Both the position numbers and the translations under genes were made by a program. Below the pieces are notes generated by a model. It was given only the letters and a program-made list of their open reading frames with translations, did no database searches and had not been told where the DNA came from. 64,000 bases of DNA from a virus. The stretch spans positions 16,183 to 80,182 of the IMG/VR virus record IMGVR_UViG_3300033149_006612, one strand, 5' to 3'. Within the stretch, counting starts at the first letter, position 1; every line of letters begins with the position of its first letter. This document shows, piece by piece, positions 23,256 through 31,633 of this stretch.

Positions 23256-24029
23256 CTAGAACTCCTTCCTTATTTCGGCCATCCGACGTGAAACCGTGGC
23301 CGATGAGACGCCCAGAGCCTGGAACTCCTTCCTTATTTCGGCCATCCGACGTGAAACCGTGGCCGATGAGACGCCCAGAGCCTGGGCATAATGCTTATTG
23401 TGAATCTTTAATTCATTCAGACCCATTACCAGTTCCCCACGTTCCCTTCGGGCCTGTTTTTCCCTAAACTCGGCTTCCGCCTTCATCCGGATCTCCTCCG
23501 GTGGCTCAAGGATCAAATCCAGAAGCCGCTTAGCTTTGGGATTCAACCGTTCTCGCAGCTGCGACATCTTGCGGTTGAAATCGATCCTGTTGATCGGATC
23601 TTCCGTCGAGTTTTTACCTCTAAACTCCATCAACATCTTCGGCGGTCTGCCCGATTTAGCGGCGACCTCCTCAAGCTTTTGGATTGAATAAACCGGACTG
23701 CGTTTACACCGCTCACCCATATTCGGATTCAGCCCCTGGAGGCCTCCTTGTTTGAACTTCTTCCGGATTTCCTTCCATAACGCATTGCGGAAATAGCGGT
23801 CGACGTCGTCATATTCGATCTCTTTCCCATCCATCAGCATGGGCCTCAGTTCCACGCTACCGTCAGGACGAATCCGGGCCTTCCGTTTCCGGATGATCTC
23901 ACACCAGAGCAGCAACCCCTCCTGTCTGAGATCCTCAAACGTGGCCTCATCATCCGAGAATTGACTAGCCAGCTTATTAATGTACCGTTCCTTTGACTTC
24001 CATCCGTCGATATCCGTTTTGTGTTCCAT
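23256..24029 (-). CDS. Putative sigma-70-like factor with duplicated C-terminal HTH segment
   Basis: FEDLRQEGLL region 2-like motif; C-terminal AQALGVSSATVSRR HTH; GGAGGT RBS. Confidence 0.7.
   Translation of the reverse strand: MEHKTDIDGWKSKERYINKLASQFSDDEATFEDLRQEGLLLWCEIIRKRKARIRPDGSVELRPMLMDGKEIEYDDVDRYFRNALWKEIRKKFKQGGLQGLNPNMGERCKRSPVYSIQKLEEVAAKSGRPPKMLMEFRGKNSTEDPINRIDFNRKMSQLRERLNPKAKRLLDLILEPPEEIRMKAEAEFREKQARRERGELVMGLNELKIHNKHYAQALGVSSATVSRRMAEIRKEFQALGVSSATVSRRMAEIRKEF
23259..23384. repeat. Perfect 63-bp tandem duplication
   Basis: 23259-23321 is identical to 23322-23384; encodes QALGVSSATVSRRMAEIRKEF twice. Confidence 0.97.
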
Positions 24030-24085
24030 CCTGGTAATGACCTCCTTCCATATGTTTGATTCTCCGAATCCATCTCACCTGCTTT

Positions 24086-24580
24086 TTATTGGCCAGCTTT
24101 GGAACGATCTTCCCTTGTAACCGCCTCGATCTCGAACGATCGACCCAATGGTGGTGTTGTCTCCTCGGATGGGGTGGAATATGTTTGTATGTATTCCCAG
24201 CGGTTGCCACCGATTCGCCGGGTGGCAACCGGGTCGATCTTGGACTCGGGATTGAAGGGATACTTCCATGCCAGAACGATTGTATCGTCCTGGCAGCCAC
24301 TGCGGAATTTGCGATAGGCTTCTCGTTTTGCGCCTAACTCTGTCCGGGCTTGACACCGATATACGGGGCTTGGGCTGGCGTTTGGTGTCTCCACCCAAGC
24401 AATCCACGGCCTATTTTTAGCGAGACGATCCCTGGCCGCGATCAGCTGATCTGCGGAAAGACCTGAGATGTCTGCCAGCAACAGGCACCACGCGTCTGGA
24501 CTTTCGGCGGATATGATATACCCGCCAACCCATAAAACGTTTCTGACACCGTTATATCTTACGACGCTTTCTTCTTTCAT
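24086..24580 (-). CDS. Hypothetical protein
   Basis: ORF downstream of the DHH-like gene with purine-rich leader. Confidence 0.6.
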   Translation of the reverse strand: MKEESVVRYNGVRNVLWVGGYIISAESPDAWCLLLADISGLSADQLIAARDRLAKNRPWIAWVETPNASPSPVYRCQARTELGAKREAYRKFRSGCQDDTIVLAWKYPFNPESKIDPVATRRIGGNRWEYIQTYSTPSEETTPPLGRSFEIEAVTREDRSKAGQ

Positions 24581-24595
24581 GACTTTTCCCTTTTT

Positions 24596-25636
24596 TTATA
24601 AATAGCCCCCGGCGAAACCCCGAGCAGGATCGCCGTACTTGTCGATCACCGGACAATGATCGAGGAACCATCGCACCTGCTTCGGTGAAGCCGACTGTAG
24701 GACCACCTTTTCCCGACCACCTCTGTCCCGTAATGACGCGATAAATGCACGCCCTTCACGGGCTGCCGCCTCCGGGAGTTCCGGAATGTGGTACCGCTGT
24801 TGGAGCAGATTGGCGATCCCCCAAGGGGCGGATACCGCGTCATATAGGCCACGGGCAGTCCCGATCAGTCTTCCTTGATAGATTCTCACCGCCTGGAGAT
24901 TACGGGCATGGCGCACGATCTTTCGCGCCGCTTCGACATCGGCCAATAACTCTTCAACTTCCCGTCCCTGGAAGAGGGCTCTCCTCTTCGCCCGCCAGGC
25001 CATCAGGCGATCGGGATCGACACCGGGACACTTGCCCCGATAGGCAGCTCCAAGGCAATGATCCGCCGCAGCTGTGAAGACCGCGGTATCGGGAATATGG
25101 ACCGCCTTCGACCGGAATCCTGGTAACGCCGCGTAGACCAACCACTCCCCGTTCTCAAAGTGAATCGTGCCGGAGCGTTCCCGGTTAGATGTGCCGCCGT
25201 CGACCTCTTTGAACCCGTCCGGCCAGACGATGAGGTTGTCACCCTCACTACGACCAAACCAACAAAAGGATGTAAGCCCGGCTACTTCAGACGCGAGCTG
25301 GGAAATCACCTGGCCCAAGCTGGATGCTTGAAGAAATTTTTCGGGCGTTTGCCCATACCCGGGATCACCCGGGCGGTGGTGGTCGATCCGGGTAATCGGT
25401 GTGTAATTCTCCGCCTCGAATTCCAGTTGGAGGTCGAGACAGAAACCACACTCGACCAAGACGATTAAATCCGGTCGATCAGGTCCACCTATCCAGCCGT
25501 CCGCCTCGTAGGCGTTGCCGGGGTGGACCCAATTGGCCCCCACCGAGGCATAGGCGACTGTCTCGCCTACCCCCCGGAGGAGGCGTTCGATCTCATAGAT
25601 TTCGGGATCTGATGCCCCGAGTATCCACAGTCTCAT
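24596..25636 (-). CDS. Putative DHH-like phosphoesterase
   Basis: LGASDPE, IDHH, AAADH and C-terminal GFAGGY; GGAGGTG RBS and its own promoter. Confidence 0.55.
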   Translation of the reverse strand: MRLWILGASDPEIYEIERLLRGVGETVAYASVGANWVHPGNAYEADGWIGGPDRPDLIVLVECGFCLDLQLEFEAENYTPITRIDHHRPGDPGYGQTPEKFLQASSLGQVISQLASEVAGLTSFCWFGRSEGDNLIVWPDGFKEVDGGTSNRERSGTIHFENGEWLVYAALPGFRSKAVHIPDTAVFTAAADHCLGAAYRGKCPGVDPDRLMAWRAKRRALFQGREVEELLADVEAARKIVRHARNLQAVRIYQGRLIGTARGLYDAVSAPWGIANLLQQRYHIPELPEAAAREGRAFIASLRDRGGREKVVLQSASPKQVRWFLDHCPVIDKYGDPARGFAGGYL

Positions 25637-25664
25637 CGTAGCTCACCTCCTGTAGTTTTCAACT

Positions 25665-25694
25665 ATTATAACACAGGGCTATGACGTTCATCAA
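25665..25694 (-). promoter_or_regulatory. Leftward sigma70-type early promoter
   Basis: TTGATG-18 nt-TATAAT with extended -10 TG on the minus strand. Confidence 0.75.
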
Positions 25695-25794
25695 GTGATT
25701 TTCGTCACATAACGGATGGACTCTAGCCGGGCAATAATGGTTCACCTTAAAAATCGAAATTTAAACTGAACCATACTTGGAGCCCATTTACTAC

Positions 25795-25824
25795 TTGACA
25801 AAACCTATCCATCTGTGGTATAAT
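25795..25824 (+). promoter_or_regulatory. Rightward consensus sigma70 early promoter
   Basis: TTGACA (25795-25800)-18 nt-TATAAT (25819-25824) with extended -10 TG. Confidence 0.88.
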
Positions 25825-25849
25825 AAAAAGTATGGAAAGGAGAAACACG

Positions 25850-25981
25850 ATGAACAAAGACCCACCGAGGACAATACAGCCCCTGTCGCAAGGCAAGCCA
25901 CAGGAATCCTACGCTCCCACGATGGAGACAGGCAGGGGGTCACGAAGAGGTCGAGCCAGTACGGGTCTGCCAGGACGCTAG
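25850..25981 (+). CDS. Short leader ORF (43 aa) or gene remnant
   Basis: AAAGGAGAAACACGATGAACAA start context identical to the gene at 26947; product is not recognisable. Confidence 0.35.
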   Translation: MNKDPPRTIQPLSQGKPQESYAPTMETGRGSRRGRASTGLPGR

Positions 25982-26116
25982 AGGCCGAGGCAACGGATGA
26001 CGCCGAGCAGAGCCACCCGGAGAGCGATGAAGACCTCGATTGAACGTGAGCGAATCGGGTAAGCCCACACCATGTGGCCGCCACCCGACCGAGCACCAGG
26101 TGCCGGTATAGTAAAT

Positions 26117-26183
26117 GACCTGTCCGGACATACCGATTGAGTCCGCTGATGAGGATGGGGGTAGGGTCCCATCGAAACAGGTC
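26117..26183 (+). ncRNA. Hammerhead ribozyme, type III (HHR1)
   Basis: Stem III GACCTGT/ACAGGTC, GTC site (cut after 26124), stem I CGGAC/GTCCG, core CTGATGA 26146-26152, stem II GATGGG/CCCATC, GAAA 26174-26177; loop I TACC complementary to loop II GGTA. Confidence 0.9.
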
Positions 26184-26195
26184 TTGGAGGTTACC

Positions 26196-26483
26196 ATGGC
26201 AGAGCGTTATACTCCTCAAGTTGGAGATCATTTAGTCCCCGACGGCTGGGGGTTTGGTGAGAATCTGGAAGCCGATGACGGGTATAGTGACGGCAGTTTC
26301 CCCGGATGTGAATTCCGGCTTCCGGCGGGCCTTGACCGTGTATACCGGCTTGCAGTCAACGTGAAGGTCACCGGCGGTGACCACATCGTGAACTTCGGCA
26401 GGTATCGGTCCCGCTGCAGGATCGAGTTTGTCGGTGACGGTGAACCGAGCACCTTCACCGGTGGATGGATCTACCACTCCTAA
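26196..26483 (+). CDS. Small early hypothetical protein (95 aa)
   Basis: GGAGG at 26186 then ATG 26196; lies between HHR1 and HHR2. Confidence 0.75.
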   Translation: MAERYTPQVGDHLVPDGWGFGENLEADDGYSDGSFPGCEFRLPAGLDRVYRLAVNVKVTGGDHIVNFGRYRSRCRIEFVGDGEPSTFTGGWIYHS

Positions 26484-26484
26484 A

Positions 26485-26548
26485 GCCGAAACCAGCCGAA
26501 AGGCTGGTCTGCTGGAGATAACCTCCCAGCACTGATGATGGCAGGTTA
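26485..26548 (+). ncRNA. Hammerhead ribozyme, type II with pseudoknot (HHR2)
   Basis: GCC-GAAA, stem III CCAGCC/GGCTGG, GTC (cut after 26509), stem I TGCTGG/CCAGCA, CTGATGA 26532-26538, GGC closing stem II, 3' AGGTTA pairs with loop I TAACCT. Confidence 0.92.
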
Positions 26549-26568
26549 CCATCGAGGAGGTTTTTACC

Positions 26569-26841
26569 ATGGAATGCCCACTTTGCGGTTCCCGCGGTTC
26601 TCGTTTCCTTAAGCCCCATCCGAGCGTTTTCGGCGTTTACGAATGCCGAAAATGCCGAGCATTGTTCGGCGAATGCTACCTGGGAGATAGCTATTCGCTA
26701 GTGTCTCCCATGTGGTCCCGGCAGGACGTCGAGGATACCGAATGCCGGTACTTCGATTTCATCTGTGTGGGATCCGGTGGGATCACACGCAGGCATGGTT
26801 GGTTCAATCCGGCTGACGGTCGGATCGTTCAAACCGGTTGA
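26569..26841 (+). CDS. Small early zinc-finger protein
   Basis: CPLCG...CRKC; GAGGAGG RBS; lies between HHR2 and HHR3. Confidence 0.8.
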   Translation: MECPLCGSRGSRFLKPHPSVFGVYECRKCRALFGECYLGDSYSLVSPMWSRQDVEDTECRYFDFICVGSGGITRRHGWFNPADGRIVQTG

Positions 26842-26845
26842 GTAA

Positions 26846-26911
26846 GCCGAAACCGGCTAGAGATAGCCGGTCTAGCCGGGATGACCTCCGGCTACTGATG
26901 ATGGTAGGTCA
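26846..26911 (+). ncRNA. Hammerhead ribozyme, type II with pseudoknot (HHR3)
   Basis: GCC-GAAA, stem III CCGGCTA/TAGCCGG, GTC (cut after 26872), stem I TAGCCGG/CCGGCTA, CTGATGA 26895-26901, GGT, 3' AGGTCA pairs with loop I TGACCT. Confidence 0.92.
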
Positions 26912-26946
26912 CTCTAACGTTAAAAGAAAATAAAAGGAGAAACACG

Positions 26947-27354
26947 ATGAACAACGAGGTAATCGAAATCCAAGTCGCTTGCACTGACAACATCACGGCT
27001 AAATGGGCCGTGATTAAACTGATGGTTAAGACGTCGGTCATCGACGTCTTAAGCAGATGCGATAACGGCGTCTACAAACCGCAGGTCAAGACCGGAGAGG
27101 AGATGTTCGCAATCCGTCCGGTAGTGGATGCGGTCGACATCGAGATGATCTGCCCCACCGGGGTGGTCAAGTGGGTCGCCAAACCCGGGGAGGAGATGTT
27201 CGCATTGGTCCGCCCGATAGTGGAGGCGATCGACATCGAGCTGGGTTGCCCCACCGGGCAGATCAAGTGGGTCGTCAAAACCGACGGGATCGTCTCCATC
27301 CACGCCGTCGATGACCAGGGAATGGAGACGGTATCAATCATCAACCTGTGCTGA
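26947..27354 (+). CDS. Small early protein with internal tandem repeat
   Basis: AAGGAG RBS; two copies of KxGEEMFA..RP.V.A.DIE..CPTG..KWV. Confidence 0.8.
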   Translation: MNNEVIEIQVACTDNITAKWAVIKLMVKTSVIDVLSRCDNGVYKPQVKTGEEMFAIRPVVDAVDIEMICPTGVVKWVAKPGEEMFALVRPIVEAIDIELGCPTGQIKWVVKTDGIVSIHAVDDQGMETVSIINLC

Positions 27355-27356
27355 CA

Positions 27357-27425
27357 GCCGAAATGCCGGGGGACCTCCCCCGGCATCTGCCGGAGATGAC
27401 CTCCCGGCACTGATGAGGCAGGTCA
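27357..27425 (+). ncRNA. Hammerhead ribozyme, type II with pseudoknot (HHR4)
   Basis: GCC-GAAA, stem III TGCCGGGGG/CCCCCGGCA, ATC (cut after 27387), stem I TGCCGG/CCGGCA, CTGATGA 27410-27416, GGC, 3' AGGTCA pairs with loop I TGACCT. Confidence 0.93.
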
Positions 27426-27457
27426 AATAATTCACCAAATCAGAAAGGAGAAAACAG

Positions 27458-27652
27458 ATGAAGGAAACGGGCATAGACGGAAACTGCCCCAGCTGGCCCG
27501 GTGCCAGCGAAGTTTACTCCAAGGCATACCGCTATATGGAGAAACATGGAGCAGACCACGCATTAATCAAAGCCCTGGAAAAGGGTAATGAAGAGGAGGT
27601 CAAAGCAAATATGCTCAGGATAAACACCGAATCGCTCCTGAGCATGGAATGA
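27458..27652 (+). CDS. Small early hypothetical protein
   Basis: AAAGGAG RBS; follows HHR4. Confidence 0.7.
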   Translation: MKETGIDGNCPSWPGASEVYSKAYRYMEKHGADHALIKALEKGNEEEVKANMLRINTESLLSME

Positions 27653-27687
27653 AAGCCAATTAATAATCGTGAATCTGTTACCTATTA

Positions 27688-27713
27688 GTGCGCCGGGGGT
27701 GCCCCCGGCGCAC
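27688..27713. repeat. Perfect 12-bp inverted repeat (GC hairpin)
   Basis: GTGCGCCGGGGG-TG-CCCCCGGCGCAC; no U-tract. Confidence 0.85.
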
Positions 27714-27742
27714 AGGAGAAACGCACACACAGGAGGAACACG

Positions 27743-28861
27743 ATGGACACCAGACAGAAAATTAAAAAGATATACACCACCCTTAACGATCAACTGGTAG
27801 AGAGGTCCGAAGTCCTACAAGGGTCGATAATAGCGATCCTTGCTCGGAAACACCTCTTCATGATCGGGCCTCCGGGTACGGCCAAATCACTCGGAATCGA
27901 GAAGTTCTGCGAGTCAATCTCCGGCATGACATACTTCGAGGAACTGATGACCCAGCAGACAAAGCCCGAGGACCTCTTCGGTCCGATCAAAGTCTCAGCG
28001 TATAGAGAAGATCGATATGAGCGGAACGTCGAAGGATTCCTACCGACTGCCGACATCGCCTTTCTCGACGAGATCTTTAAGGCCGGTGGACCAAATCTTA
28101 ATCCGCTGCTGAGGCTGACGGATGAAACGCGCAAATTCCGGAACGGCAAACCCCAGATGGAGCGATGTCCGCTGAACAGCCTGTTTGCCGCCAGTAATGA
28201 ATTCCCCGAGAACGCAGCCGAACTCAGCGCTCTTTGGGACCGGCTGCTACTCCGATATGTGGTGGACGACATCGTCGATGATTCCAACTTCGAAGCCATG
28301 ATGGCCTTGGAGGAAATCAAAATCGAGCACACCATCACCAAGGAGGAGCTCCGGCAAGCCCAGGAGGAGGTCGACCGGGTAAAGATCACACCAGAAATCA
28401 TCCATGTGCTGACCGAACTCCGCTCGAAGCTCCGGAAGGAAGGATATATATTTTCTCCCCGGAGATGGCGGGAGTCAAAGCAGGTCCTCAGGGCTCATGC
28501 CTGGTTCCACGGCCGGGACGAGGTCTCCGAGGATGATCTTGAAATCCTGGCCGCGGTCCTCTGGGACAGGCCCGAGCAACGGCGCGAGGTACTTCGCATC
28601 TTGATGTCCACCACCAATCCCGACACTGCCACAGCCCTAGCGTTGTTCGACGACATCCAAGAGATCATTGATGACATCGAAAAGCAGCCGGACGAATCGG
28701 CCAAACTCGCTGCCAGTCAGGAGGCCGTAGTCAAACTCCGGGATATGATCCCGCTGTTTGACAACTTCCGGCCCCACGCTAAGATTTTTGAATTAAAAAA
28801 TCAGGCCATAGAGATGCAACGTGCCGTCGTCCGGAGGTATTTCGGAATTAACATTAACTGA
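27743..28861 (+). CDS. MoxR/RavA-family AAA+ ATPase
   Basis: GPPGTAKS, EDLFGP, GFLPTADIAFLDEIFKA, ASNEFP, ALWDRL, SPRRW. Confidence 0.9.
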   Translation: MDTRQKIKKIYTTLNDQLVERSEVLQGSIIAILARKHLFMIGPPGTAKSLGIEKFCESISGMTYFEELMTQQTKPEDLFGPIKVSAYREDRYERNVEGFLPTADIAFLDEIFKAGGPNLNPLLRLTDETRKFRNGKPQMERCPLNSLFAASNEFPENAAELSALWDRLLLRYVVDDIVDDSNFEAMMALEEIKIEHTITKEELRQAQEEVDRVKITPEIIHVLTELRSKLRKEGYIFSPRRWRESKQVLRAHAWFHGRDEVSEDDLEILAAVLWDRPEQRREVLRILMSTTNPDTATALALFDDIQEIIDDIEKQPDESAKLAASQEAVVKLRDMIPLFDNFRPHAKIFELKNQAIEMQRAVVRRYFGININ

Positions 28862-28871
28862 GGAGGCAGTC

Positions 28872-30308
28872 ATGTTCGTAACCAATGTTGACGCATTCGA
28901 CCGGAGGACATTCGAGGACATCGCTCCCCGGTCCAGCAAGGTGGAGGACATCCGGTCCTCCGCCGAATATTCCGAATACGGAGACCTGCTAGAGGATCTC
29001 ATGGTTGACGGCTTCGGCTCCCTGTACAAATACGCCCCCCGGGTTCTGGAAGACGTCCCACCGGAACGGATTCTCTCCAAGCGGGTCATTGAACAGTGGC
29101 AACAGTTACCGGAATGGCAGCAGTTCCGGAAGTTCACCGTAGGTGACGAGATCGTCAGTATGGGAGCCGTAGACGCCGTGTACCGGGTGTTCAAGGAGAT
29201 GCCGGTCGAGGTTAAACGACGCCAACGGGAACTCCAGGACTTCTCGGATCGGCTGACCGAAATGTTGAATTCCGACGATACTGATTTTGGTAGTGACGAA
29301 TTCAAGGATGCGGTAACCGACATGGTCGAAGCCGGTAATAGGGTGGATCAAGCCCTGGATGCCGACGAGGACCGGATACGAAAATTGTGCCGGGTGGCAC
29401 TTCGAGAGGCCGCGGATGAGGCAGAGATCGAGGGAAAGGCAATGCTGGCACTCGGTTTTGATGACTCTACCGGGGAACTTAACGGTTCCCACAAGGACGA
29501 TCGAATCAAAATAGCCAGCATGCTGCAGAACAATCCCAAGCTTCGAGAAATCGTTAAACTCGCCGGTCGATTCTGCTATGTGGCGGATAAAAAGCAGCGG
29601 GAGAAATCCGAATACGCCCGGTCCCAGGTATCCGGTATTGAATTCGGAGACGACCTGCAGCGGGTAACCCCCTCCGATATGGCCCTCCTGTCCGATAAAG
29701 ACTTAGAGGAATTGTTCTGGCTGAAGTACATCGAATCAGGACTCCAGCTCTACAAGATCACCGGCACCGAGACCCTAGGTAAAGGACCCGTCGTGATAAT
29801 GGTCGACTGTTCCGGTAGTATGGCGGGTCAGAAGGATATATGGGCAAAAGCCATGGCCCTAGCGGGTTATTCCATAGCCCGGAAGCAAAACCGGGACTTC
29901 GCCTTTCTGTTATACAACACCGAGGTCAGGAAACAGATCTACCTTAAATCCGGCACCGGCAAACGGAACATGACCGGTCTGGCCGAGATTCTATCATCCG
30001 GCGTCGGCGGTGGTACCGATTTCGAAGTTCCCATCACATACGCCATGCGGGAGGTCCTAACCAGGTCCGAATTTACCAAGGCCGACATCATCTTCATCTC
30101 GGACGGTTACTACATGATCGGTGACGACTGGTTCCGGGATTATCAAACCCGAAAGGACGGTATGGAATTCGCGTTCTGGGGAATTCAAATCGGCCCCAGG
30201 CTGAGAGGTATGGACGCGTTGGATAGACTGAGCGACGACGTGGTTTACCTGGACGGTGACATCCTGGCCAATCAGGACCGGGCTTTTGACATGGCCTTTA
30301 CCATCTAA
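28872..30308 (+). CDS. VWA-domain protein (ViaA-like partner of the AAA+ ATPase)
   Basis: KGPVVIMVDCSGSM MIDAS motif, GGGTDF, ADIIFISDG; GAGGAGG RBS before 28872. Confidence 0.9.
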   Translation: MFVTNVDAFDRRTFEDIAPRSSKVEDIRSSAEYSEYGDLLEDLMVDGFGSLYKYAPRVLEDVPPERILSKRVIEQWQQLPEWQQFRKFTVGDEIVSMGAVDAVYRVFKEMPVEVKRRQRELQDFSDRLTEMLNSDDTDFGSDEFKDAVTDMVEAGNRVDQALDADEDRIRKLCRVALREAADEAEIEGKAMLALGFDDSTGELNGSHKDDRIKIASMLQNNPKLREIVKLAGRFCYVADKKQREKSEYARSQVSGIEFGDDLQRVTPSDMALLSDKDLEELFWLKYIESGLQLYKITGTETLGKGPVVIMVDCSGSMAGQKDIWAKAMALAGYSIARKQNRDFAFLLYNTEVRKQIYLKSGTGKRNMTGLAEILSSGVGGGTDFEVPITYAMREVLTRSEFTKADIIFISDGYYMIGDDWFRDYQTRKDGMEFAFWGIQIGPRLRGMDALDRLSDDVVYLDGDILANQDRAFDMAFTI

Positions 30309-30400
30309 CCCGTCAATGAAAACAAATCTCAACCATGGAATCCGTTAATGAAGCCGGGGAAGGATGTCCCCGGCAAAGCCCATCATCGAGGAGAAAGACG

Positions 30401-31633
30401 ATGAAACAAAAAGAGGAAATCAAGCGAACAATCGCAGAACAGGCGAACGGCCTCCCCATACTGGGCCACCTGGTCTGGTGGACCGTCCACAAGGTGGAAA
30501 TCCCCAGACTGGACTTGGAAGACCTGCTCGCGAAGACCGTCGGCATTCAATACATGCCCACCGAGCACCGGAAGGCTAAAGCTCTCAAGAGGGGCTTAGA
30601 ATCGATGAGGGAAGCTGGCCTGCTGGACCTCATCCGTGATGACAAGGTCATGACGGCTTATCAGATCACCGATAAGATGATCGACGTCAAGGAGGTCAAG
30701 GCCGACTACCGCCGCAAGGCCGCGGTCCAATTCGTGAAGCGGGGAGACGGGGTCCCGATGGGTGGGGAAATCCGGGTATACGGTGATGTGGACAGGAAGG
30801 AGGTCCAAGAACGGTTGGACCACTACCTGCAGGTGTACACCGCCGATGACATCCGAATGATCCTCAAGGCATATGTCAGAGACAATGCCGGGATCAACCT
30901 GAATGAGAACGGCCTCCTCTACTTCGTCCCCGAGCCTGAGGTAGTTGACGTCATGAAGGTTTTCCTGGAAGCCGTCGGTGGTGACCTTGGGCTCTCCCCG
31001 GTTACCGACACCGAATACGTCAAGACCAACATGGTCACTCGGATTCGTGATGAACTGGAGGCCGAAATCGAATCGGCCGCCGAGGAGGTCAAGAGGATGA
31101 GCAGCAGCAAGTTCACCAGAGGACTGACCTTCAAAGCCCGGTTAAAGGAATTCGCCGCTCTCAAGAACAGATGTGAGACGTACAGCGAGCTACTGAAGTT
31201 GGATGCCGAGACCATGATTCAGAAGGTGTCCGAGCTCCAGGAATCGGTAGAGGATTCCCTAATGGGAATCCACGTGGATTACCCCCAGATGAAGGAGTTC
31301 CCCTATGGCACCCGGGTCAGATACACCGGCGACGCCCCTAAACTGCTCATCAACCTTAACGGCAGCACTACCGGAACGGTAATCGGGTATCTCAATTCCA
31401 AGACCGGGAAACAATACGTCAAAGTTCGGTTCGATACTAAAGATATCAAGGTCATCCGGCCGATTGCACCGGGCAACCTGGAGATCACCGAACGCGCCGT
31501 GGAAACCGATCTGACGGAGATGGATGAGGATCAATTGCTGGCCAGGTTCGAAGTCTCCCCCGGCTGGTACCAGATCCCCGGTCACACCAAAAAAGTCCGG
31601 AAGGCGGAAGCCGTTCAATTACTGAAAGCGTAA
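30401..31633 (+). CDS. Hypothetical protein (possibly DUF6744-like)
   Basis: LGHLVWW, G.LYFVP and coiled-coil C-terminal half; family recalled from memory only. Confidence 0.55.
   Translation: MKQKEEIKRTIAEQANGLPILGHLVWWTVHKVEIPRLDLEDLLAKTVGIQYMPTEHRKAKALKRGLESMREAGLLDLIRDDKVMTAYQITDKMIDVKEVKADYRRKAAVQFVKRGDGVPMGGEIRVYGDVDRKEVQERLDHYLQVYTADDIRMILKAYVRDNAGINLNENGLLYFVPEPEVVDVMKVFLEAVGGDLGLSPVTDTEYVKTNMVTRIRDELEAEIESAAEEVKRMSSSKFTRGLTFKARLKEFAALKNRCETYSELLKLDAETMIQKVSELQESVEDSLMGIHVDYPQMKEFPYGTRVRYTGDAPKLLINLNGSTTGTVIGYLNSKTGKQYVKVRFDTKDIKVIRPIAPGNLEITERAVETDLTEMDEDQLLARFEVSPGWYQIPGHTKKVRKAEAVQLLKA

Follow-up and report, generated by a model that had tools for sequence, protein, structure and literature searches.

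Natural type II hammerhead ribozymes, together with their pseudoknot, were first described by Perreault et al. (2011, PLoS Comput Biol; PMC3088659). The text of that paper also describes clustered prophage hammerheads that flank single genes, for which processing into single-gene mRNAs was proposed. The triple arrays of Clostridium scindens, Azorhizobium caulinodans and Agrobacterium tumefaciens are reported there to be cleaved in vitro, and the last also in Escherichia coli. In vivo cleavage is known for type II hammerheads that adjoin phage-like genes of Desulfovibrio vulgaris (PMC8782182), and a 2019 review suggested that such processing could yield transcripts of differing stability or translation efficiency, calling the roles "largely elusive" (PMC6765202). 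The present analysis concerns an array of four hammerhead ribozymes (HHR1 to HHR4) in a window of 64,000 nucleotides (nt), which comprises bases 16183-80182 of the 80,182-bp IMG/VR virus record IMGVR_UViG_3300033149_006612; positions below are those of the window. The array is real, well formed and typical of a widespread phage family of ribozymes. Its arrangement is already published and is common in IMG/VR contigs, so the novelty implied by the original prediction, which had been made from the letters of this stretch, does not hold (PMC3088659).

The locus resembles the arrays described in the text of Perreault et al. in that hammerheads of mixed types (I-III) lie in the same orientation, flank single genes or short blocks and, in type II, possess the pseudoknot. 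By the definition of an array given there, four plus-strand copies here separate five open reading frames (ORFs) in a phage genome. The differences are that this array has four copies, belongs to a complete, non-integrated phage and stands directly downstream of a consensus promoter; in addition, the flanked genes differ from those discussed in that text, and none is ardA. With the Rfam families RF02276 and RF00008 the ribozymes share the core, the three-way junction and the pseudoknot. They depart from these models in a low score for HHR1 (37 of 48.5 bits), in a G inserted after A9 in the same ribozyme (RF00008) and in a U inserted in HHR2 and HHR3 (RF02276). A technological parallel is provided by the RiboJ-type insulators, in which a hammerhead ahead of the ribosome-binding site (RBS) trims variable upstream RNA and leaves a hairpin at the 5'-OH, so that expression becomes independent of context. 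Unlike natural arrays, these insulators are single parts that were engineered from a plant satellite RNA. Another self-cleaving element of bacterial mRNA is the glmS ribozyme, whose 5'-OH product sets the fate of the mRNA (PMC6765202). In contrast to this array, glmS is metabolite-dependent, has another fold and destabilises the mRNA.

Detection and position of the ribozymes

The hammerhead descriptor used here requires CUGAUGA, GAAA, an A15.1-U16.1 pair, a nucleotide other than G at H17, and three stems with minimum lengths of 4, 3 and 4 pairs, whichever of the three permutations they form. When applied to both strands of the 80,182-bp genome, it finds exactly four sites. These are the four complete sense-strand cores that had been predicted, and the descriptor places the cuts at the same bonds, after 26124, 26509, 26872 and 27387. 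A total of 300 dinucleotide-preserving shuffles of the genome gave 1 hit altogether, or 0.003 expected per genome.

The Rfam models support this result, fully for type II and in part for type III. HHR2, HHR3 and HHR4 each cover the full Hammerhead_II model (RF02276) above its gathering score of 37 bits, and they are the sole three Rfam matches at gathering score in the 64 kb. HHR1 aligns to the full length of Hammerhead_3 (RF00008) and falls below the gathering score of that model, 48.5 bits. This alignment emerges only from a search confined to 121 nt (E value 4e-7 for that search), which indicates that search filters hide HHR1; it was missed both by an Rfam search of positions 24000-30000 (E<=10) and by a whole-genome search with RF00008. 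HHR1 is identified as a hammerhead because of the descriptor scan, the context of the array and the homologous type III copies with compensatory stems that are present in other viral contigs. Searches with the Rfam models of other ribozyme classes (twister, pistol, hatchet, hepatitis delta virus (HDV)-like) found none in the window at gathering score and none in 24000-30000 at E<=10.

The ribozymes are tightly fitted between genes. HHR2, HHR3 and HHR4 start 1, 4 and 2 nt past the ORF stops that end at 26483, 26841 and 27354, and each of the four ribozymes is followed by a Shine-Dalgarno (SD) sequence and an ATG (at 26196, 26569, 26947 and 27458). Fragments of 385, 363 and 515 nt follow from the predicted cut positions. 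Every factual statement of the original prediction was confirmed.

Structure and covariation

The hammerhead core is intact in all four ribozymes (CUGAUGA, GAAA, U16.1 and C17), and the minimum-free-energy fold is a three-way junction in each case. In the descriptor scan, stems I, II and III comprise 5, 7 and 7 bp in HHR1, 6, 3 and 7 bp in HHR2, 8, 3 and 8 bp in HHR3, and 6, 3 and 10 bp in HHR4. HHR1 is of type III and HHR2-4 are of type II, so that two permutation types lie on the sense strand between genes.

Covariation provides further evidence that these structures are maintained. Among HHR2-4, stems I and III differ at most positions, with every pair canonical and with changes on both sides at 15.2-15.7 and 1.2-1.5; pair 15.4-16.4, for example, reads A-U, G-C and C-G across the three. 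The pseudoknot of these three ribozymes, a Watson-Crick helix of 5-6 bp joining loop I with the tail past stem II, covaries among the copies and across the family, being UAACCU/AGGUUA in HHR2 and UGACCU/AGGUCA in HHR3 and HHR4. Both kinds of covariation had been predicted. Because the stems covary to keep pairing, selection on the RNA is indicated. In HHR1, a 4-bp UACC/GGUA loop-loop pairing is possible, judging from sequence alone. The 5' halves of HHR2-4 are interchangeable, with an identical GCC stem II strand and GAAA.

Three of the ribozymes contain an extra nucleotide between A9 and stem II (10.1), which is G in HHR1 and U in HHR2 and HHR3. In a set of 119 distinct hammerheads from other viral contigs, including 74 of type II and 41 of type III, an extra U at this place is common (40/74 type II and 11/41 type III), and an extra G is rare (3/41 type III). 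HHR2-4 are unchanged in a 99.3% identical variant contig (L004/L005), an observation without weight given that only about 1.5 changes would be expected.

Genomic setting

The record possesses direct terminal repeats and is rated 100% complete. It encodes a large terminase, a tape measure protein, baseplate-like proteins, a family A DNA polymerase, a DnaB-type helicase and an SbcC-like nuclease, and these genes identify it as a tailed phage. The carrier of the array is an uncultivated, non-integrated tailed phage with a complete genome of about 80 kb. No named phage matched positions 25700-29700 in a blastn comparison, and the identity of the terminase to that of any named phage does not exceed 25%, too little for a host to be inferred.

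A rightward gene block begins in a divergent intergenic region, and the array stands at the head of this block. In the whole 80-kb genome, only the sigma-70-type promoter of the intergenic region departs from the consensus at fewer than two positions, the next best sites departing at two, and the ribozymes are therefore placed downstream of the only perfect consensus promoter. From this promoter the order is ORF1, HHR1, ORF2, HHR2, ORF3, HHR3, ORF4, HHR4 and ORF5. Past ORF5 follow a G+C-rich hairpin and then genes for a MoxR-type ATPase, a VWA protein and a DUF6744 protein.

Occurrence in other viral contigs

Close relatives of both ribozyme lineages are widespread. The pattern of the HHR2-4 subfamily (GCCGAAA...ACCTCC...CTGATGA) occurs in 97 IMG/VR stretches, and that of the HHR1 subfamily (GTCCGG...CCGCTGATGA...GAAAC) in 71. 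The suggestion that ribozyme-spaced ORF arrays might be found elsewhere was borne out by applying the descriptor to fetched IMG/VR loci, where many pairs and several longer arrays were detected in unrelated contigs. The array of L149 consists of a type III followed by three type II copies, the same order as in this phage, and that of L183 of a type III followed by four type II; in L172 a type III also precedes a type II. A type III is followed by three type I copies in L201. The arrays of L179 and L200 consist of four and three type III copies, respectively, and L043 holds five copies in 2.4 kb. In L118, a type III and a type I bracket six small ORFs, one of which is a homologue of ORF2 (53% identical). 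Apart from this homologue, no protein or DNA similarity to the phage was detectable in the array loci. Short G+C hairpins that are not ribozymes stand between some of the small ORFs inside the hammerhead pair of L118 (3470-3510 and 3700-3735).

The arrays of L149, L183, L043, L179, L201 and L118 share with this locus the spacing of stop codon, ribozyme and RBS, and some of them have four or five copies. The same layout is seen among the individual type II relatives. Of the 74 distinct type II copies in other contigs, 58 have a stop triplet at -1 to +5 nt, and in 60 an SD and start follow at most 80 nt past the ribozyme (median 26 nt). The loop/tail pseudoknot helices average 4.5 bp in cognate combination vs 3.1 bp when re-paired (maximum 3.53 in 200 re-pairings). 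On account of this spacing and of the cognate excess, the succession of stop codon, ribozyme and RBS is the norm of a widespread phage ribozyme family.

The genes themselves behave differently. Ten viral contigs with MoxR relatives gave no Rfam hit at gathering score, and at 16 such loci the descriptor found no ribozyme beside the gene except in the 99.3% variant of this phage; a single type II site lies about 4.4 kb downstream of the MoxR relative in L017 and L018. Since MoxR relatives occur without adjoining ribozymes, the array does not travel with the MoxR module. Similarly, 12 viral contigs with ORF2 homologues gave no Rfam hit at gathering score, and L118 is the sole one of them in which the descriptor found nearby hammerheads.

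Processing of the operon transcript

The most probable interpretation, to which we assign a probability of roughly 0.6, is that four constitutive hammerheads cut the operon RNA into units, with independent decay and translation of these units likely. Transcription would start from the consensus promoter, and each ribozyme would fold and cut itself co-transcriptionally. The expected products are a leader of about 294 nt, the three one-gene RNAs and a long RNA that runs from ORF5 into the MoxR-VWA-DUF6744 genes. The permutation type would decide which product retains which hairpin. When a type II hammerhead is cut, the stem III hairpin with its 2',3'-cyclic phosphate stays on the 3' end of the upstream RNA, and the stem I hairpin and pseudoknot, with a 5'-OH, stay on the 5' end of the downstream RNA. 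The 5'-end hairpin and pseudoknot of HHR2-4 would thus stand just ahead of the RBS of the next gene. Cutting of the type III HHR1 would give the downstream RNA a 5' end that carries the entire fold, and the leader only a 7-nt tail. This geometry fits a role in giving the RNA of each gene defined, structured ends, and the likely consequence is that each RNA would decay and be translated independently of its neighbours.

Several points weigh against this interpretation. HHR1 does not reach the Rfam threshold, and the extra G that it carries may slow catalysis. The hammerhead of the chrysanthemum chlorotic mottle viroid has reportedly been found to accept or profit from an extra U, an extra G being detrimental; the slowest of the four ribozymes may for this reason be HHR1. 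In HHR2-4, stem II is only 3 bp long, so their predicted activity depends on the pseudoknot. The ribozymes are also not tied to particular genes, as MoxR relatives and most ORF2 homologues occur without them. Finally, a 5'-OH escapes the 5'-monophosphate-dependent RNase E, and in hosts with RNase J it marks an RNA for decay, according to the glmS work cited in the review (PMC6765202). The direction of the 5'-OH effect would accordingly depend on the RNases of the host.

By analogy with the relatives that have been tested, HHR1-4 probably cleave; any effect of cleavage on RNA stability and expression is purely conjectural. The original prediction had the phage self-processing its strongest early transcript into single-gene mRNAs stabilised by 5'-OH ends, with host-takeover or anti-defence genes as the beneficiaries. 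Its structural part stands, and the terms "early" and "strongest transcript", the stabilisation by 5'-OH and the roles assigned to the genes are not supported here. Self-processing into single-gene mRNAs is the standing, still unproven hypothesis of the field, and it is extended to this locus by analogy.

An alternative is that the ribozymes lower or time expression, either because cleavage exposes the pieces to host decay or because it responds to conditions; expression of the small genes would then be confined to a short period. This is how glmS works, its 5'-OH product being a target of RNase J1 (cited in PMC6765202), and regulated cleavage is raised for phage hammerheads in the text of Perreault et al. 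(PMC3088659). The extra nucleotide after A9 in HHR1-3, combined with the 3-bp stem II, could slow or condition cleavage. However, the folds are those of plain hammerheads, with no sign of a ligand-binding or switch element, while the stable hairpins in which both type II products end fit protection better than decay. The outcome would also depend on the RNases of the host, and this alternative appears unlikely.

It is considerably less probable that the ribozyme modules are DNA-level linkers at which recombination swaps small gene cassettes, RNA cleavage being secondary. Near-identical ribozyme subfamilies do lie between unrelated genes in unrelated contigs, and the ORF2 homologue of L118 is found in a differently composed, ribozyme-bounded block. 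That the flanked genes vary is noted in the text of Perreault et al. as well (PMC3088659). Against this, the blocks in common span only about 8-10 nt, ribozymes are absent from the vicinity of most ORF2 homologues, and stem covariation that keeps pairing is explained only by selection on RNA.

Circularisation of the units 26510-26872 and 26873-27387, through the reverse reaction or a host ligase of the RtcB type, would yield exonuclease-proof circular mRNAs. Each unit holds an RBS and a whole ORF, and the interchangeable halves of HHR2-4 could rebuild a chimeric hammerhead from the ends of one unit. RtcB requires a 5'-OH and a 2',3'-cyclic phosphate, the ends that hammerhead cleavage gives, so the end chemistry is suitable. 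The chimeric junction would, however, rest on a 3-bp stem II, and circular or spliced products were sought from such arrays and none found, as stated in the text of Perreault et al. (PMC3088659). This makes circularisation most improbable. The idea that the motifs are chance matches or decayed, inactive relics draws on the sub-threshold score of HHR1 and can practically be dismissed in view of four complete cores on one strand within 1.3 kb against the 0.003 expected per genome and of stems that are all intact with compensatory changes, to which the identity of HHR2-4 in the variant contig, as an underpowered test, adds little.

Order of the permutation types

Returning to the processing of the operon RNA into units, the order of the ribozymes suggests that the choice of permutation depends on which of the two products is to keep the hairpins. 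Every one of the six mixed arrays (this phage, L149, L183, L172, L201 and L118) has a single type III copy in the 5'-most position, followed by type II or type I copies. If position were random, type III would come first in all of them by chance about 1 time in 1280, a figure to be read with the caution that L183 and L172 look related. No statement of such a regularity was found in the text of Perreault et al., figures aside (PMC3088659).

In two of the contigs the leading type III overlaps the signal for translation initiation. The 3' strand of stem III is the SD itself in L183 (117-190; GAAACGAGGAG...ATG) and in L172 (5140-5215; GAAACAAGGAG...ATG), so the RBS would become exposed once cleavage had removed the short 5' strand. 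In this phage the SD sits 2 nt beyond stem III of HHR1. It is a doubtful proposition that the order of types is functional throughout, with type III shedding the leader, and in some phages unmasking the RBS, type II capping the neighbouring RNAs, and the type II units perhaps being circularised.

Flanking genes

The features of the locus are collected in Table 1. ORF2 and ORF3 are real conserved proteins, which establishes the plus strand as the coding strand. The ORF2 family (about 95 amino acids, aa) possesses an invariant C-terminal IEFVGDGEPSTF(T)GGW motif. For ORF3, 223 representative clusters were found at E<=1e-3, with C3, C6, C26 and C29 invariant. A search for relatives of ORF4 among 5.8 billion proteins returned only ORF4 itself. 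Within this protein a segment of about 31 aa is duplicated in tandem (GEEMFA..P.V.A.DIE..CPTG..KWV.K twice). ORF1 and ORF4 have one and the same RBS/start context, AAAGGAGAAACACGATGAAC (25836-25855 and 26933-26952), which hints at a duplicated translation-initiation module.

When ORF1-5 were compared with Pfam and PHROG, nothing was found except a weak zinc-ribbon match, and the confident models of ORF2 and ORF3 gave no significant match in a Foldseek search of the PDB. Because these searches of families and folds gave no function, a role of the ORFs in host takeover or anti-defence is a guess. The hairpin between ORF5 and the MoxR gene was not called by terminator prediction; it could stabilise a 3' end or terminate transcription in part. 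The closest relatives of the MoxR protein are 45-58% identical and are found in other viral and metagenome contigs.

Table 1. Features of the ribozyme array and its surroundings (positions in the 64,000-nt window; pLDDT, predicted local distance difference test)
Feature	Position	Strand	Description
Sigma-70-type promoter	25795..25824	+	TTGACA, 18-nt spacer, TG-TATAAT; 12/12 match, extended -10
ORF1	25850..25981	+	43 aa, low complexity; on the ~294-nt leader piece that HHR1 would release; reality as a gene doubtful
HHR1	26117..26183	+	Type III hammerhead; predicted cut after C26124; RF00008, 37.0 bits, full model
ORF2	26196..26483	+	95 aa, conserved small all-beta protein; 64 homologues; model pLDDT 90
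HHR2	26484..26550	+	Type II hammerhead with loop I/3'-tail pseudoknot; predicted cut after C26509; RF02276, 43.1 bits
ORF3	26569..26841	+	90 aa, N-terminal CxxC...CxxC zinc ribbon and beta domain; model pLDDT 94
HHR3	26845..26913	+	Type II hammerhead with pseudoknot; predicted cut after C26872; RF02276, 46.5 bits
ORF4	26947..27354	+	135 aa, orphan; from translation
HHR4	27356..27427	+	Type II hammerhead with pseudoknot; predicted cut after C27387; RF02276, 44.0 bits
ORF5	27458..27652	+	64 aa, first gene of the long downstream piece; from the ORF list
G+C-rich hairpin	27690..27711	+	9-10 bp, without U tract (GCGCCGGGGG-TG-CCCCCGGCGC); between ORF5 and the MoxR gene
MoxR-type AAA ATPase, VWA protein, DUF6744 protein	27743..31633	+	PF20030 (bpMoxR)/PF07728, PF13519, PF20529; PHROG ATPase

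Significance

The locus adds no new principle to what is known of phage hammerheads. Its value is that of a clean test case: four ribozymes, representing two permutation types, follow a single consensus promoter in a complete genome, and each lies in a short gap upstream of an RBS, three of them directly after a stop codon. Beyond this locus, the leading position of type III in all six mixed arrays is a hint that the permutation sets which product keeps the protective hairpins.

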